Positions 1-6,939 of a stretch of DNA of 64,000 bases are shown one piece after another; position 1 is the first letter of the stretch, and each line of letters starts with the position of its first letter. The DNA is from Escherichia coli (lineage in GTDB: Bacteria; Pseudomonadota; Gammaproteobacteria; Enterobacterales; Enterobacteriaceae). A program made the position numbers and the translations under genes. The notes under the pieces are model-generated. The model did no database searches. It was not told where the DNA came from and worked only from the letters and a program-made list of their open reading frames with translations. The stretch lies in assembly GCF_003019035.1 (NCBI RefSeq), contig NZ_CP027447.1; one strand, written 5' to 3'.

Positions 1-636
1 TCTGTTAGCCTCAATCTCTACGTCTGTTTCTGTGTCAATGTCTAAATCATCGAGGATTGGCGTATCTAATTTATCATAGTGCAGAGCAATGTGGGATAAT
101 TCATGCATTAATGTAAACCAAAAGTAATCATATCTCGAATATCTTAAACTTAGACCTATGACTGGTGTTTTATTTGGTAAACAAAAGGTACAGCCATCTA
201 ACTTCATACCTTTGAATGATTTTTCAATTATTAGAATAATACCATATTCTTCTTTAAGGATTCTTGAAATATAATGAATAGATTGTACATCCCTGCTCAA
301 ACTTGCAATTATTCCGAGGTTTTCAAAATCCAGATCTGTGAAGACCTTTGTATTTCCTTTTAAATAGGTGTTTAATGACTTTTTTTCTATTAATGATAAC
401 CATAAATTTATGAGTTCAGAATTAGCATCATCTCTTTTTCTAAATAGTTTATTTTTGTTAAATGTTAAATTTTTTGCTACATCAAGTAGGAATTGATTTT
501 CGTTTTCCATTTCTGGTTTACGGGAAATAATATCTTTTATTTTTTTGCTGTTTTTTATCTTTTGGAAATTTAGTAAAATTTCCAAATCAGACTCACTAAA
601 CTGATTTGATACAAAGAAATCTTTCTCATGCGGCAT
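1..636 (-). CDS. ImmA/IrrE-like HEXXH zinc metallopeptidase domain protein, partial (3' end runs off the window)
   Basis: Absent from the ORF track because it is truncated. Manual minus-strand translation from ATG 636..634 gives about 210 codons with no stop, including ...IGLSLRYSRYDYFWFTLMHELSHIALHYDKLDTPILDD... (HELSH at about 105..91). The start overlaps the stop of the upstream ORF by 11 nt. Confidence 0.5.
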   Translation of the reverse strand, partial: MPHEKDFFVSNQFSESDLEILLNFQKIKNSKKIKDIISRKPEMENENQFLLDVAKNLTFNKNKLFRKRDDANSELINLWLSLIEKKSLNTYLKGNTKVFTDLDFENLGIIASLSRDVQSIHYISRILKEEYGIILIIEKSFKGMKLDGCTFCLPNKTPVIGLSLRYSRYDYFWFTLMHELSHIALHYDKLDTPILDDLDIDTETDVEIEANR

Positions 637-1273
637 TTGAAATTCCTCCGAGAGTTGATGCGACAACCTGTGATGCCTCATAAAATCGGAGATTTTCTTT
701 TTCATGGTCGACGCCAAAATCAGTCATGCCAAGATGGTTATAGAAACCCTCTGCACTTGGGAGTGCATGTAGGCAAAAACCAGGTCTATACCCCCAGTTT
801 GAACAGGCATAATTAATTGTATGTTGGATAAGCTCTTTGCCTACTCCACTATATTTAGGGGTAAAGTTAGGACGAGGACGATTCCAGTATGCTGTTGCAA
901 TATAATCCACGTAGAAAATTTTATTATTATCAAATCGACTTTCTTTTGGATGGTAAAGAACACAAACACCTTGAACTGCGTCGTTTATTTGCAGAAAAAA
1001 CCACTGATAATCATCACCATTACATTGCAAAAGCTTGCGGCACCAGTCCCAATGCCAATCAGAAAGGCTGTTATCTGCCAGAATTTTCCTTGCTAACTCG
1101 TTATCAGTGGCCATACCGGGGTTAGCAGTAATTAGAGCTGACAATAAATCAGCACGATAGGCACCCCATTTGCTCTGCAAGTCAACCACTTTAGCATAGT
1201 CAATCCCTACGTGAATTTGGTAATCAACTGATTTTCCTGAACAATTTTCAACGACCATAAGCTCCCTTTCCAT
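626..1273 (-). CDS. GNAT-family acetyltransferase-like protein (215 aa)
   Basis: ORF track. The segment ...KYSGVGKELIQHTINYACS...GFCLHALPSAEGFYNHLGM resembles GNAT motifs A/B (R/K-x-x-G-x-G, then A..FY...G). Its stop overlaps the start of the downstream peptidase-like ORF. Confidence 0.45.
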   Translation of the reverse strand: MERELMVVENCSGKSVDYQIHVGIDYAKVVDLQSKWGAYRADLLSALITANPGMATDNELARKILADNSLSDWHWDWCRKLLQCNGDDYQWFFLQINDAVQGVCVLYHPKESRFDNNKIFYVDYIATAYWNRPRPNFTPKYSGVGKELIQHTINYACSNWGYRPGFCLHALPSAEGFYNHLGMTDFGVDHEKENLRFYEASQVVASTLGGISNAA

Positions 1274-1505
1274 TGTGTCGGCTCATTTTGACTAATAATA
1301 CAACTTTATAGTCTTTAAGAATGCTCTGCTGGTCAAATTTCTTATTTGATCTATAGAAGGCTATGTTTTGAAGCTGGTTGTTAATCTGGTTATGATGTGG
1401 TCATATTAGAATTGGTAAATCAAACCAATTTTGTTGGTATGAATGATGGTATCTTCGCTAATGTAATATGCTTTATTCACTAAAAATCATAAGGATAGTT
1501 GCGAT

Positions 1506-1528
1506 GTTCGAGTCCGGCATCCGCACCA
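1506..1528 (+). other. tRNA 3'-end-like fragment (T-loop GTTCGAGTCC ... ACCA), not a complete tRNA
   Basis: GTTCGAGTCCGGCATCCGCACCA resembles the T-arm/acceptor 3' end of a tRNA (similar to the 3' end of tRNA-Leu leuX as I recall it). The upstream sequence does not form a cloverleaf. A small hairpin plus T-tract follows at about 1546..1568. Confidence 0.3.
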
Positions 1529-2203
1529 CACTGTATGCAAATCGAGTCGCTCAAGAGCGGCTTTTTTTGTGTCTGAAATCACCCATATCCGTGCAGTATA
1601 TAGGCCTGCCAGAAAAGCAATTCAGTATTCTTCATTTTGTAGTCGATGGTCCCAAGTTTGCTCTGGCTGGAAGCTGCATCGTCCACATTACGTGGGCAGG
1701 GTGGTTTCGCTATGCTACTTGAACGTTTTGACCATGTGGCTCAGGTAGCATATCAAAAGACGTCATTTTGTCTCCACGCCCACCTTGGTGAACATTCAAT
1801 AAATAGTTTCGGTCGAGAGCAGTTATGTAGGGCTAGCAGACGAAATGCGCAGACATCTTGTTGAAGACAATTTTACTGACCACCTGAGAACGCTATTCTA
1901 CCGAATAATATTTATTATCTTGGTGAATAATGATGATTACCTGTGTAACTATGGTTTTATGCTGATGGGACCGGCAGTACAATTTCTGTAGTGTACTCGC
2001 AATTTCAGGTCTCTGGCGTTTATTCTGGTGCAAAGGATGTATGTGATGAAAACTTTGCTACCATGCCATTAAATGCGACCAATATCGGATTATCCATCAG
2101 TTGCTTGTTGTAGATTTCATTGGTTATAAAAATGCAAGGTGTAAAAGATGAAATTTATAATTATTAGTTAAGTGGCTAGTTTTATAGTAATTTAGACAAT
2201 AGG

Positions 2204-4252
2204 ATGTATGGAAAAATGGAAAAAGTTTATGATACCACTAGAATTAGTAATCTTGCTAACGACCCGAAACAGTTTTGTTCTTTTTTTTGTGAGTACATAA
2301 AAAGAGATGATATTAGTATAGATATCGCCTTGGATGTGCTGAGAATATCTTCCATCTATTATAATAGATTTTCAGTTCAGACTGAAGTTGAGTATAACAA
2401 TACATTCAAAAAATGTATTAATGAGCTAGTAAACTCATTTCCTGATAACATTGAACTAATCTCTGAGTTCGAGAGTCAATGTAAAATTATGCATGATATA
2501 AATAATTCTTTCTTTGCGGCTACAAAATGTGCTGGTATTTGGCGTAAAAATACAAAAAAATCACATGCATTAATACTTAATCTCATCATGTTTTGTGAGA
2601 TGTTTTTATCATTATTATCATCCTTGGTTGTGGTCAATGATCCTAAAAAAATGAAGAGGATTTTTCCATTGTTTATCGTTTCTGAAAATATTAATATTCA
2701 TGCTGAACCTGATATCGAATATTTTCGAGTTATCGATAGGGCATTTGATGAGGTAGCCAATTACACCGGAAGAATATTTTCTTATTTACGGACTCATGGG
2801 CCATTGAAACTAACTTCTTGTGTGAATAAACAAACCTTGCTTTCAATGGGAGGGTACCTTAATGAGTGGAATGTTTTTGACTCATTAAGCAGAGTAAGAG
2901 ACTTTTTCAGACTAAGTAGTGCAGTATTTACAAAATTGGATAATAACATTTACTCTCTTGAGGTTGATAGTTTTTGTTTATACCGAGATTATGAGATTGC
3001 AAGAAATAGACTAATGATGAGAGCGTCACATCTATATAGCGAAGTTCATGAATTTAGTAACAAACATTTTCATCTAAATAGTTGGGTAAAGGATCATATG
3101 CCATCTTACTTAAATTCTGATGGCGTTTTTAGCTCATTTCATCTAAGCGAGTTGGAAAATATGTCTCCTGATGACCTTCATGAAGAATATGGGAATATAT
3201 CATTATTTAATTGGGTGCACGCTTATCAATGTTTAGTCGAGTTATCTAAAGAAGAAATGAGCAAAAGATTTTCATCGACAAAACCTATACCCCTACAGTT
3301 GGATCGCTGGCTGATCATAAAAAGCCGTGAGAGTTGGTTATCATTCTTTCAACGTAAGGGGATTGCAGTAGATGCAGCAAAAAAACTGATAGATTATTTT
3401 ACCTTCAATTCAAAATCACATGATCTTAATGATTGCCCATTTATTCCCTGTATGGACGGTTTATGCTTAATGCCTGCATTAATAGCAAATAGCTCAGTGA
3501 CTCGCTCTCTAATGTCATTATTTGGTTCCAAAAAAATTTCTCAAGCAAGTAAAGGGCGATTTCATGAGCAACAATTTATAAAACAAGTTCGTGATGCGGG
3601 GATTAAAGCTTCTCCAATTGATGCTCATGCTAATTATCAGTGCGATTGCGTGATTCTCCTGGATGATTGTTTGATTTTTACAGAACTAAAATCAAATGGT
3701 CAACCAATATATTATGGTAAGTACTATCAGCAAGTGTGTAACATCGTTGGAGATAGCTCATTAATACATGATCATAATAATAAATTTATGCGTTCTTATT
3801 TTCAACAAATAAATCGAATTTCTGAACATTATCTTAATCATCTTAATGTGATCATTAAAGAATTCGAACTACCATCAACATGGCAACCCAAAGGTGTGTA
3901 TAAGCTTATTGTTACTACAACTATGCTCGGTGGGAAATATCATGTGGATGATACATATGTAGCGGACAAATATGCATTATCTAGTTTTTTTCAACGAATA
4001 CCTGGAGTGATATATCAAACAAATGAAAATGGAAAAATGGCGAAAAATATCATTGATGGGTTTGAGTGTTGCGAAGGGGAAATCACTATCGATAAGTTTA
4101 TAGATTATCTTTCCTCTTTGCCCAGTATTAATGCTGTACGTAAAAATATAAAAAAATTAACTTATAGTGTTCGATTTAATGAAAAATTAGTCCATCACCC
4201 TTATTATGATTCTTGGGCTTTTGGCCCATATATTCGTAAGGGAAATGATTAG
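2204..4252 (+). CDS. Hypothetical protein, 682 aa, very AT-rich; possible PD-(D/E)XK-type nuclease motif in the C-terminal third
   Basis: Long uninterrupted ORF in the track. N/K/I/F/Y-rich composition, no recognisable Walker motif. The segment ...CDCVILLDDCLIFTELK... fits a hhhD...ExK nuclease-like pattern. A hairpin plus T-tract follows immediately downstream. Confidence 0.6.
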   Translation: MYGKMEKVYDTTRISNLANDPKQFCSFFCEYIKRDDISIDIALDVLRISSIYYNRFSVQTEVEYNNTFKKCINELVNSFPDNIELISEFESQCKIMHDINNSFFAATKCAGIWRKNTKKSHALILNLIMFCEMFLSLLSSLVVVNDPKKMKRIFPLFIVSENINIHAEPDIEYFRVIDRAFDEVANYTGRIFSYLRTHGPLKLTSCVNKQTLLSMGGYLNEWNVFDSLSRVRDFFRLSSAVFTKLDNNIYSLEVDSFCLYRDYEIARNRLMMRASHLYSEVHEFSNKHFHLNSWVKDHMPSYLNSDGVFSSFHLSELENMSPDDLHEEYGNISLFNWVHAYQCLVELSKEEMSKRFSSTKPIPLQLDRWLIIKSRESWLSFFQRKGIAVDAAKKLIDYFTFNSKSHDLNDCPFIPCMDGLCLMPALIANSSVTRSLMSLFGSKKISQASKGRFHEQQFIKQVRDAGIKASPIDAHANYQCDCVILLDDCLIFTELKSNGQPIYYGKYYQQVCNIVGDSSLIHDHNNKFMRSYFQQINRISEHYLNHLNVIIKEFELPSTWQPKGVYKLIVTTTMLGGKYHVDDTYVADKYALSSFFQRIPGVIYQTNENGKMAKNIIDGFECCEGEITIDKFIDYLSSLPSINAVRKNIKKLTYSVRFNEKLVHHPYYDSWAFGPYIRKGND

Positions 4253-4274
4253 AGCAATTTATTATATAGTCCAT

Positions 4275-4331
4275 GTTATTCACTGATTATATTATTGATA
4301 ATATAATCAGTGAATAACTCTAATTTTTTTA
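4275..4331 (+). terminator. Putative intrinsic terminator after the 682-aa ORF
   Basis: 44-nt near-perfect inverted repeat (gttattcactgattatattatt / gataatataatcagtgaataac) followed by T-tract ttttttt at 4325..4331. Confidence 0.45.
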
Positions 4332-4640
4332 ATGTTGGGGTTTAGCCTGAAGTTGAAATTGGTACTACGGAACGGTATGATCATATCGCATCAAAATATC
4401 AAGGTAGTGATGATTTTCTACGCACCGATCCAGAAATGTGGATTTTATCATCACCATAAGCAATGGCAGCGACAACACCATCAATTTCTATATCAAAGGT
4501 GGTAAAATAAATTAGAAAATTGTTTATTTAATCCATTAGCGATAAGTTTTATTGTTATTTAGCCGAGATATATTCCATTGAAAAAAGTAAATTGGCACTG
4601 ATATTATATCAAATGGGAATAATCCTTTTGTAAATAAGCT

Positions 4641-4830
4641 GAGGAATGTGTTAATTCACATCCAGCGCCTTATAAACCGCATCAACCGGTTCTGAGTAAA
4701 AACTTACCTGAAACTTGGTAAACAACTCTGCCGGAACTGTTGGAATATCCATAGCCGAGGATATCGGCAACAGAACTCGTTTTGCGCCGCTATCGAAGGC
4801 GAGTTGTAAACTAGCGGCAAGATCCTGCAC
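4641..4830 (-). pseudogene. Lon-protease-like C-terminal fragment (gene remnant)
   Basis: Minus-strand translation (V)QDLAASLQLAFDSGAKRVLLPISSAMDIPTVPAELFTKFQVSFYSEPVDAVYKALDVN* resembles the extreme C-terminus of Lon/S16 peptidase domains (compare E. coli Lon ...AAHRGGIKTVLIPFENKRDLEEIPDNVIADLDIHPV...EEVLTLAL). Only about 60 codons, with an in-frame stop immediately upstream. Confidence 0.35.
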
Positions 4831-4874
4831 TGATTATGTCAGCAATATTGAACATACTGCGATAGTTATCAACC

Positions 4875-5804
4875 TCACCCCCTAAAAACCTCTTTCCGAT
4901 GCCACTCCACAAATCCCTCATAAGGGTAATTTTTACGTACCTGCGGCAACGCAATAGTTTTCCCGTCAAAATCCCAGAATAGTTTCTCAACGATCCCTCC
5001 GCCGTTTACCGCATCTGATACCAGTACCCGCATATTTTCATCCAGGCCAATCGATCCTTTATCAAAGGCTTTATGGTGTATTGCACAAAGCGCCAGACCA
5101 TTAGGAATTTCACAAGGACCGCCGTGCTGTTTCCATTTTATATGCGCCGCTTCCAGCGCGACGGTGGTGTCGTCGTGGCGCATATTAAAGCCACATATCG
5201 CGCACTGGTAGTTATAAGCGCGTAATACATTTTTGCGAAATAACGGGTCGCGCTGTTTACGGATTTGCTGGAGATCAAAACCCAGTTCGTCAGCAATTTC
5301 TTCCTGAATACTCTCGGTGAAGTGCGCTTCGAGTATCTGTTGCGCCAGAGTATTGATGAGTTTTTTATTGCCAGTTACCAGGGCGTAGTGCTGTTCATCG
5401 AAACCGCCTGCAACGTGGTATTCAGTCAGTTCCTTCACTGGTGGTTGTCGGCTGCTCCCTGCTGTTGAGCAAAGCCCGGCATTGTGTAATTGCCAGAATC
5501 CGTCGCCTTGTAATCGCCAGAACGGCATATCAGGTCGGTACTGTGAACGCTGTGGCCCAAAACGTTCCAGTAAATTGTGCAGAGGTTCGTAGATTTCCGA
5601 TCCATAATCGAAAAGGCGCGGATGCCCATTCAGGTATCCCGCTAATACGTATAGCAGTAACAATGGTTTATGCGGCGCGCGCTGTTCACCCTTGTGCCAG
5701 ATTTTTATATTGGCAATTGCCTGCTGTAGCGATTTACTGGAAGCCATTGATATCCCTGGCAGTGAAATAATTGCGATCATGCTCGCAAATTTTCTGCTGT
5801 TCAA
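4875..5804 (-). CDS. HNH endonuclease domain protein with uncharacterised N-terminal domain (McrA-like architecture)
   Basis: ORF track. C-terminal ...YQCAICGFNMRHDDTTVALEAAHIKWKQHGGPCEIPNGLALCAIHHKAFD... is an HNH signature (C-x2-C ... H ... N ... C-x2-H). The true start may be the internal Met near 5747. Confidence 0.6.
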   Translation of the reverse strand: MNSRKFASMIAIISLPGISMASSKSLQQAIANIKIWHKGEQRAPHKPLLLLYVLAGYLNGHPRLFDYGSEIYEPLHNLLERFGPQRSQYRPDMPFWRLQGDGFWQLHNAGLCSTAGSSRQPPVKELTEYHVAGGFDEQHYALVTGNKKLINTLAQQILEAHFTESIQEEIADELGFDLQQIRKQRDPLFRKNVLRAYNYQCAICGFNMRHDDTTVALEAAHIKWKQHGGPCEIPNGLALCAIHHKAFDKGSIGLDENMRVLVSDAVNGGGIVEKLFWDFDGKTIALPQVRKNYPYEGFVEWHRKEVFRG

Positions 5805-5958
5805 GCCTGCAAGTGAAGATATATTACCTTGATCTCATTTGTTTTTTTGCTGCCTGTGTACCCTAATTGCCATGCGATGTTGCACCGACGCAAACCACCG
5901 TTTACGCCGGAGGAGTTAAAAGCGCTGATGGATGCAAATAAATCAAATTAATGAACGC

Positions 5959-6939
5959 TCACCTTTCGCGCCAAAACCGCAAAATTGCTTCTACAAACCT
6001 GTCAGAAATAATCCCCCGACGGGCTGCCGCGCTGAAATGACTGCTTCGCAGTGCCGTCGTCCAGTTCTCCGGTGACCGGTACGCTGAACCGTAATATCCC
6101 GTGCTTAAATCGTCCGGGTCTTCAACAGGCGCGTTCGTCAGTCCTCTTTCACCTTGTTGCTGGAAGTCGACGAAAATAATATTGGCTAAAACATTATTTT
6201 GATAATTGCCATAAATAGCTTCATACGCATGAGGGAAATTTTCTTTCCAGTACCAGGTGGTATCGCCGCAAAACCACGGCGCGTCAGTAATATTATTAAG
6301 CTGAGAATGGTATTGTTTTAGATCCCTACGAAAGGCTTCAACCATATGATTAAAGTGTTGAGGGTGTGACGCGTAGTCACTGGTCATTAAGTCAAATTCG
6401 CCTTGCATCCAGCATACGCCGAGGAATTTGTTCTGCGGATTTTTTGCCAGTGCGGCTCGCGTTCTGCTGACTAAATCCTGGTATAGCGGAGTATCCGTTC
6501 CCCAACGACAAGCATCATGGCTGGCTCCGTGCCGTTCTGAATATGTCCCTTCGCTGCCCGCGGTAAAAGCCGATCCGCCACGGCAACACGGAACGATGAG
6601 AACCCCTGCATTATCAGGAATGAAGGGCAGTAATTTCCGTGCAATATGCAGTGCCTGGCCAACGGTGCCGTACTGTGTTTGATGATTCGTTGCCAGAGGA
6701 TGGTGATAACCCTGCATATCCTGAACATCGTGTGGGCAGTGAGTCAGTGGAATAATGTCGTTAAAGTGACATGACGGGCCTCCGGGATGCGTATGCGCAA
6801 ATCTCGCTAATTGTTTAATTCTGGGATGAGGCGCATCTTCCCCGTCCGGTAATGGCAGTCCTTCGCCATACGCCATGGCATTAGACTGACCAGCAACGGT
6901 AAGAACATAGTAATAATCGGGCGATATTATCGCGTTCAT
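5959..6939 (-). CDS. nanS: Sialate O-acetylesterase NanS (YjhS)
   Basis: 326-aa ORF matching E. coli NanS in length and remembered sequence; synteny nanS-nanM-nanC. Confidence 0.85.
   Translation of the reverse strand: MNAIISPDYYYVLTVAGQSNAMAYGEGLPLPDGEDAPHPRIKQLARFAHTHPGGPSCHFNDIIPLTHCPHDVQDMQGYHHPLATNHQTQYGTVGQALHIARKLLPFIPDNAGVLIVPCCRGGSAFTAGSEGTYSERHGASHDACRWGTDTPLYQDLVSRTRAALAKNPQNKFLGVCWMQGEFDLMTSDYASHPQHFNHMVEAFRRDLKQYHSQLNNITDAPWFCGDTTWYWKENFPHAYEAIYGNYQNNVLANIIFVDFQQQGERGLTNAPVEDPDDLSTGYYGSAYRSPENWTTALRSSHFSAAARRGIISDRFVEAILRFWRER

Follow-up and report, generated by a model that had tools for sequence, protein, structure and literature searches.

In BrxL of the type 1 BREX system, the C-terminal Lon-like domain lacks a conserved protease catalytic motif, and this domain mediates the tail-to-tail dimerization of BrxL rings (PMC10164562). 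The full-length E. coli protein, at 694 residues, contains the Pfam domains BrxL_N (PF20442) and BrxL AAA+ ATPase (PF13337), followed by Lon_C at residues 515–689; it matches the solved structures 8EMC, 8EMH and 8EIL, with true Lon proteases matching more weakly. BREX has been reported at only two E. coli defense hotspots, #1 and #37 (PMC10121019). Hotspot #37 is defined by nanS, yjgB/ahr and a tRNA-Leu gene (Hochhauser et al, 2023, supplement, PMC10121019); it is occupied in 97% of E. coli and holds 31 types of defense system, and how its cargo is mobilized was reported as not established. We found no mention of remnants, pseudogenes or decay in the main text of that study. A brxL fragment that survived the loss of its 5′ part is known from Salmonella StySA, where the laboratory allele ΔbrxL::cat left a ′brxL remnant of 707–807 nt with the whole Lon_C-like domain, a strong promoter and global transcriptional effects (PMC9009780).

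We analyzed a 64-kb stretch of E. coli contig NZ_CP027447.1 (64,000 nucleotides, "the window"), in which 622 bases without an intact gene separate a 682-aa open reading frame from an HNH endonuclease gene (Table 1). These two flanking genes are convergent, as an earlier, sequence-only reading of this DNA had stated. On the right, the HNH gene is followed by nanS (5959–6939), nanM, nanC and then fimB. On the left, positions 1505–1580 repeat the 3′ end of tRNA-Leu (leuX) in degenerate form, along with the terminator that natively follows that gene, at 79% identity to the corresponding DNA in locus L013, described below; this repeat looks like an att-type sequence marking the end of an element integrated at leuX. 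In homologous loci the order runs from ahr and tRNA-Leu on one side to HNH and nanS on the other. The copy of the leuX 3′ end together with the nanS flank thus identifies the locus as the leuX–nanS island, which is defense hotspot #37, the best known of such sites in E. coli. We read positions 4368–4865 as a scar without function, left by deletion of a type 1 BREX island from this hotspot, a reading to which we assign a probability of about 93%.

Table 1. Coordinates and main properties of the BREX scar and its neighbors in the window.
Feature	Position	Strand	Properties
682-aa orphan gene	2204–4252	+	convergent with the scar; occupies the place of the remaining PLD-like gene and everything left of it
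Perfect 20-bp hairpin with T-run	4275–4318	+	probably terminates the 682-aa gene, whose module ends here on the right
PLD-like nuclease gene, 5′ remnant (codons 1–62)	4368–4553	−	~85% identity to L001 and L013; tblastn matches in three frames
Remnant of the brxL to PLD-like intergenic spacer	4554–4650	−	19 nt shorter than in L001 (alignment)
brxL 3′ remnant, part B	4651–4830	−	BrxL codons 636–694 and stop; callable as a 59-codon GTG ORF
Internal deletion site	4823–4830	−	in-frame loss of 57 nt (19 codons) between 8-nt direct repeats
brxL remnant, part A	4831–4865	−	BrxL codons ~605–616; 83–86% nucleotide identity, more diverged; premature TAA at Lys-614 (AAA>TAA)
Deletion junction	4859–4866		brxL codon ~605 joined to DNA 9–16 nt downstream of the HNH stop
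HNH endonuclease gene, intact, 290 aa	4875–5747	−	longest ORF extends to 5804; NF045808, 437 bits against a cut-off of 180

The 59-codon ORF of part B translates to VQDLAASLQLAFDSGAKRVLLPISSAMDIPTVPAELFTKFQVSFYSEPVDAVYKALDVN. The NCBIfam profile for BrxL (TIGR02653) matches this peptide over positions 617–675 of 675 (E = 3.8e-24), and the PADLOC BrxL model matches it over positions 623–680 of 680 (E = 1.7e-19). The match is BrxL-specific and far beyond chance. The remnant is 94–95% identical in nucleotides and 95% identical in amino acids to the 3′ end of intact E. coli brxL, with part B differing from the intact genes of loci L001, L002 and L004 at 9–11 of 180 nucleotides; three of the changes are nonsynonymous (M>I, D>E, G>D). 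The sequence-only reading had translated this ORF exactly while placing its lower boundary at 4641, 10 nt off, and had likened it to the extreme C-terminus of a Lon/S16 domain, perhaps left from an older defense gene. The stretch does form the end of Pfam Lon_C in full-length BrxL, and the older gene was, specifically, the BrxL gene of BREX-1.

What survives is a small part of that protein. Against TIGR02653 the remnant scores 85 bits, while the curated NCBIfam cut-off is 628 bits; the BrxL_N and AAA+ ATPase domains are absent, and tblastn of full-length BrxL against the window matches at residues 606–694 only (window 4863–4654). The remnant comprises the last 60–70 residues of the 175-residue Lon_C-like region, or roughly the last third of the 182-residue C-terminal domain, and it lacks the complete proteolytic domain and Ser–Lys dyad of a Lon/S16 serine protease. 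The S16 domain of Lon (Pfam PF05362) is itself a distant homolog of the parent BrxL domain (E = 2e-13 against residues 515–689), of which the fragment is only the last part. Its homology to BrxL (TIGR02653; 8EMC, 8EMH, 8EIL; PMC10164562) covers residues ~605–616 and 636–694; unlike BrxL, it lacks a proper start and partner BREX genes in the window, and it carries an internal stop and has lost 19 codons.

Comparison with the same locus in other E. coli genomes, a check that the sequence-only reading had proposed, revealed intact brxL in strains SCU-106 (locus L004) and O111:H8 7-54 11A (L013). The left part of L013 contains ahr, tRNA-Leu, an integrase remnant and AbiEi/Eii; these are followed by a PLD-like gene, brxL, pglZ, pglX, brxC, brxB, brxA and the PDC-S11 gene, and the right part holds the gene for the phosphorothioated-DNA-binding HNH endonuclease, a second HNH remnant, nanS′, nanM and nanC. 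The right half of L004 is the same, reading nanC, nanM, nanS′, HNH, PDC-S11 and then brxA through brxL. In loci of this order, the seven genes from the PLD-like gene to brxA lie, together with the HNH gene, on the strand equivalent to the minus strand of the window, and the PDC-S11 gene lies on the opposite strand. The latter gene, located between HNH and brxA (20383–21381 in L004; 33045–34041 in L013, where it is frameshifted), encodes a 332-aa PD-(D/E)xK/membrane protein (PADLOC PDC-S11, E = 7e-114). The trio of phosphorothioate-dependent HNH, PDC-S11 and BREX recurs, with HNH, PDC-S11 and brxA in continuity in 462 of 5426 complete E. coli genomes.

Aligned to the intact loci, window positions 4368–4830 and 4823–4864 correspond to the region spanning the start of the PLD-like gene and the end of brxL, and from position 4859 onward the window corresponds to DNA just past the HNH stop. 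The two points brought together at the junction lie 14,567 nt apart in L013, 14,571 nt apart in L004 and 14,510 nt apart in L002. The missing ~14.57 kb contains brxL codons 1 to ~604, pglZ, pglX, brxC, brxB, brxA and the PDC-S11 gene. A comparison of the window with L002 and L004 revealed an imperfect 6-nt microhomology at the junction, GCGRTA on the plus strand, which reads GCGATA in brxL and GCGGTA in the flank. The operon context of pglZ, pglX, brxC, brxB and brxA, present in L002, L004 and L013, is absent from the window, and tblastn with all BREX proteins detected no other BREX fragments anywhere in its 64 kb.

BREX has also decayed elsewhere. Locus L001 (20305–27551) carries an IS3 element inside brxL, and a separate deletion there has left a fusion between the 3′ part of pglX and 5′ sequence of the HNH gene. 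In another island (L014, 9002–9331), a 330-nt brxL stump is truncated by IS3 and adjoins a 141-nt fragment annotated as "alkaline phosphatase" that is probably pglZ. Both are decay events independent of the scar in the window.

Within the stump, codon-level alignment to the brxL of L004 places the internal deletion between 8-nt direct repeats, GT(A/G)CAGGA on the coding strand, at brxL codons 617 and 636; the 57-nt loss is a typical slippage event. The stump shows 9 shared differences over 180 positions from the three intact alleles of L001, L002 and L004, which differ from one another at 2–3 synonymous sites only. The M>I, D>E and G>D changes fall on residues identical in all three intact alleles, and every scar copy shares them. 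Individual scar copies have acquired further, scattered nonsynonymous changes (A>T, G>D, S>W, G>C, Q>E/L, P>T) and a stop-loss, a pattern that fits relaxed constraint. In this tiny sample, six of nine scar-specific substitutions are synonymous, a share above the expectation for pure neutral decay. We found no Shine–Dalgarno-like sequence upstream of the GTG of the 59-codon ORF. In RefSeq the fragment is already annotated as a pseudogene, incomplete and named "peptidase; missing N-terminus", and with intact relatives at the same locus, 1.8 kb missing from its 5′ end, the TAA codon, the 57-nt deletion and variable copies, it is a gene remnant, a pseudogene formed by deletion.

None of the sampled alleles is an intact brxL with the scar-specific residues I23, E47 and D57. 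Nearly all matches of a protein search with the 59-residue peptide were short ORFs called in copies of this scar or in other brxL stumps. We also scanned 100,044 species representatives for a donor allele with a degenerate DNA pattern for the scar-specific C-terminus (EPVDAVYKALDVN), and the only match was a single contig, itself the same scar. Since no intact allele carries these residues, either the donor allele is unsampled or the changes postdate inactivation. That contig, SFGN01000178.1 (L010), was deposited under the name of a "Lachnospiraceae bacterium" MAG, but with 99.2% identity to window positions 1512–5139 it is E. coli DNA, a case of mis-binning or contamination in the public record.

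To the left of the brxL stump lies the start of the gene that directly follows brxL in L001 and L013. The sequence-only reading had described short coding-like fragments with internal stops in this region, and these prove to be the decayed start of the PLD-like gene. Its lesions include a start codon changed from ATG to ATA, three 1-nt indels and several stops. The intact protein shows Pfam PLDc_2 at residues 71–142 and a DrmC/ZacB-like PLD region at residues 87–128; the HKD motif, within residues 87–128, is missing from the remnant.

Beyond the PLD remnant is the module of the 682-aa gene. Of 340 cases among the complete E. coli genomes, 336 have the 3′ end of this gene joined to the PLD remnant. 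An Rfam search of positions 4100–6000 at a permissive threshold returned chance matches on the 20-bp hairpin only. The 682-aa protein has no Pfam, NCBIfam or PHROG match, and its only match is a weak one to PADLOC PDC-M29B (E = 1.2e-3), over a PD-(D/E)xK-like motif whose residues D481, D487, E494 and K496 are invariant in 7 homologs. Its relatives occur only in Escherichia, Salmonella, Izhakiella, Xenorhabdus, Pectobacterium and Pantoea, and UniRef names the Izhakiella relative "NERD domain". In the two contexts that we examined, Izhakiella (L011) and Pectobacterium (L012), these relatives have no recognizable partner gene. AlphaFold, run with a 7-sequence alignment, yielded a poor model (mean pLDDT 54). 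The 682-aa gene is a candidate single-gene defense nuclease of hotspot #37.

Farther left, window positions 1–1484 are not common to UTI89 or strain WEC, which in their place hold other elements, a CP4-like island and a P4-like satellite. This window-specific segment includes a 215-aa ORF (626–1273, minus strand) with a weak acetyltransferase (GNAT-like) PHROG match (E = 3.7e-3) and no PADLOC or NCBIfam match.

The scar is shared by many strains. Using a 121-nt probe across the junction and requiring at least 80% coverage, we found the identical junction in 360 of 5426 complete E. coli genomes; carriers include UTI89-like uropathogens, O145:H28, O169:H41 and STEC005. In 336–339 of the 360, the PLD remnant is also joined to the 682-aa gene. 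In STEC005 (L006), similarity to the window begins exactly at the brxL stop (4650), with different cargo to the left of it, and both the junction and the 57-nt deletion are identical to those of the window. Both events must therefore predate the replacement of the left side in this strain.

On the right, the scar abuts an HNH gene assigned to NF045808, the phosphorothioated-DNA-binding restriction endonucleases, and the encoded protein is 97.6% identical in amino acids to the copy that adjoins intact BREX in L004. The 3′ end of this gene occurs with some cargo in 2204 of the 5426 complete genomes. To its left, other genomes carry McrBC with a type I restriction–modification (R-M) system, in two arrangements, or a cytosine methyltransferase. 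On its right side is the nanS flank in the seven annotated loci examined; in L009, an O157-type locus, that side instead holds a nanM fragment and Zorya II. The HNH gene is thus the stable edge of the variable region and the resident right-hand neighbor of the lost BREX operon. At the position of the scar, other genomes thus hold BREX, McrBC with type I R-M, a cytosine methyltransferase, or Zorya nearby, and the proposal that this is a defense hotspot undergoing turnover is borne out: the site is hotspot #37, and several alternative defense cargos occupy it. The flanking genes are those described by Hochhauser et al for hotspot #37 (PMC10121019), and the cargos found here (BREX, McrBC with type I R-M, AbiE and Zorya) fit their account, to which the scar left by BREX deletion in many genomes, with its breakpoints, adds a small detail.

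Homology between the window and different cargos stops at closely spaced points next to the HNH gene: at 4859–4866 for the BREX type, 4865 for L007 and 4872 for L008. The L004-type and L007-type flanks diverge from each other at TTATCAACC, and the departure from the conserved flank falls within ~13 nt of the HNH stop for BREX with PDC-S11, for either McrBC arrangement and for the scar. Four cargo types, compared on their own side of the junction with the HNH flank, showed no motif or site in common; in two cargo types, a G-run pairs with a C-run at the HNH stop, a possible hairpin. Bacterial genomes have a deletion bias, and for this reason we favor, as an explanation for the clustering, successive deletions ratcheting up to the stop codon of a selected gene over a single random deletion; a single random 14.6-kb deletion ending at the clustered breakpoint would be a coincidence, and a preferred breakpoint would be the less favored alternative. 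On the other side of the HNH gene, window positions 5846–5951 (plus strand) hold a second gene remnant, the last ~105 nt of a gene for a 216-aa HNH endonuclease that is intact in STEC005 (L006, 10026–10676) and TUM2330; the window lacks 583 nt of it, with the junction in a 12-nt overlap (5846–5857).

Different origins for the fragment and for the break can be weighed against these comparisons. Derivation from a true Lon/S16 protease, or from a Lon-domain defense protein other than the BrxL of BREX, would account for the PGAP names "peptidase" or "S16 family serine protease" on some copies, and the region does lie within Pfam Lon_C in full-length BrxL. The alignment nevertheless takes in all of the last 59 positions of the BrxL-specific equivalog profile, sequence identity to brxL is as high as given above, the adjoining downstream DNA is the brxL–PLD spacer of BREX islands, and true Lon chains reach only E = 1e-11 to 1e-4 against the BrxL C-terminal domain; we regard such a source as having a negligible chance of being right. 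The sequence-only reading further suggested that the older gene was disrupted when the HNH gene arrived; on this model, brxL was broken apart by a later HNH insertion. Genes of the HNH type are often mobile, and here the HNH stop is only 9–16 nt from the broken end of brxL. An insertion predicts the 5′ half of brxL beyond the HNH gene, but no such sequence is present there or elsewhere in the 64-kb window. Moreover, the gene already stands beside the intact brxA–brxL operon in the 462 genomes and beside many other cargos among the 2204, its other side is the nanS flank in the seven annotated loci (L009 excepted), and the segment missing from the window is exactly the DNA between brxL and HNH in intact loci. 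An HNH insertion as the cause is thus extremely unlikely. Because the HNH gene is resident beside intact BREX and the missing DNA matches the intact interval, we conclude that BREX was lost by deletion. The BrxL identity and the hotspot turnover proposed for this locus hold, and the arrival of the HNH gene as the cause does not.

A separate question is whether the stump is retained for a function, either as a micro-protein carrying BrxL contact residues that acts against incoming BrxL or as a 3′ UTR or stabilizer of the HNH mRNA. The HNH gene, on the same strand, stops 45 nt upstream of the stump, with no terminator-like site found between the two, and the scar persists in 360 genomes. The stump also keeps an LFTKFQ stretch aligned with BrxL T658 and Q661, residues said to mediate dimerization between BrxL hexamers (PMC10164562), and in Salmonella an overexpressed, far longer ′brxL fragment perturbs global transcription (PMC9009780). 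In contrast to the laboratory remnant of StySA, the natural scar keeps ~215 nt, in decayed form. Only about one third of the domain remains, so that folding is unlikely; the GTG start lacks a Shine–Dalgarno sequence; radical substitutions (S>W, G>C, Q>L/E, P>T) and a stop-loss occur among the copies; and three changes affect positions that the intact BrxL proteins of L001, L002 and L004 share. Linkage to the HNH gene, which is under selection, accounts for the persistence of the scar. In genomes of the STEC005 type, all DNA as far as the stop codon of the stump has been exchanged, which shows that its boundaries were set by chance events. Retention for a function is accordingly very doubtful, and that the stump does nothing is the best-supported reading. 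Nor do we give more than a slim chance to a related pair of ideas: that the stump peptide, co-transcribed with HNH, might act as a dominant negative against incoming BrxL, or else that the cluster of junctions might be a preferred recombination site. The second of these, if true, would help to explain the exchange of integrase-less cargo at hotspot #37.

Overall, our comparisons support a model in which BREX was lost from this site by deletion and its remains then decayed; the order and number of the deletion events are what we infer from them. The ancestral locus would have resembled that of O111:H8 (L013), with the PLD-like gene, brxL, pglZ, pglX, brxC, brxB, brxA, PDC-S11, HNH and nanS in this order. 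One or more illegitimate deletions would then have removed ~14.57 kb, from brxL codon ~605 to a point 9–16 nt past the HNH stop, with the final junction formed at the imperfect 6-nt microhomology. This would have eliminated all six BREX genes save the last ~90 codons of brxL, along with the PDC-S11 gene. The stump would subsequently have shed 19 codons by slippage between the 8-nt direct repeats, gained its stop codon and drifted. The PLD-like gene would have been cut at codon 62, losing its start codon and reading frame, and everything to the left of its remnant would have been replaced by the module with the 682-aa orphan gene.

As a feature the scar is ordinary and, through the RefSeq pseudogene flag and the published hotspot, essentially already known; it reveals no new mechanism. 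It is a clean, datable case of defense-system loss with defined breakpoints, showing microhomology at the main junction and repeat slippage in the stump. The scar could be useful for marking lineages, and tools that call defense systems from fragments could take it as a control case. For E. coli, it means that a widespread group of strains once held type 1 BREX at the leuX–nanS hotspot and then lost it, and that these genomes kept the phosphorothioate-dependent HNH nuclease and gained the 682-aa gene alongside it.
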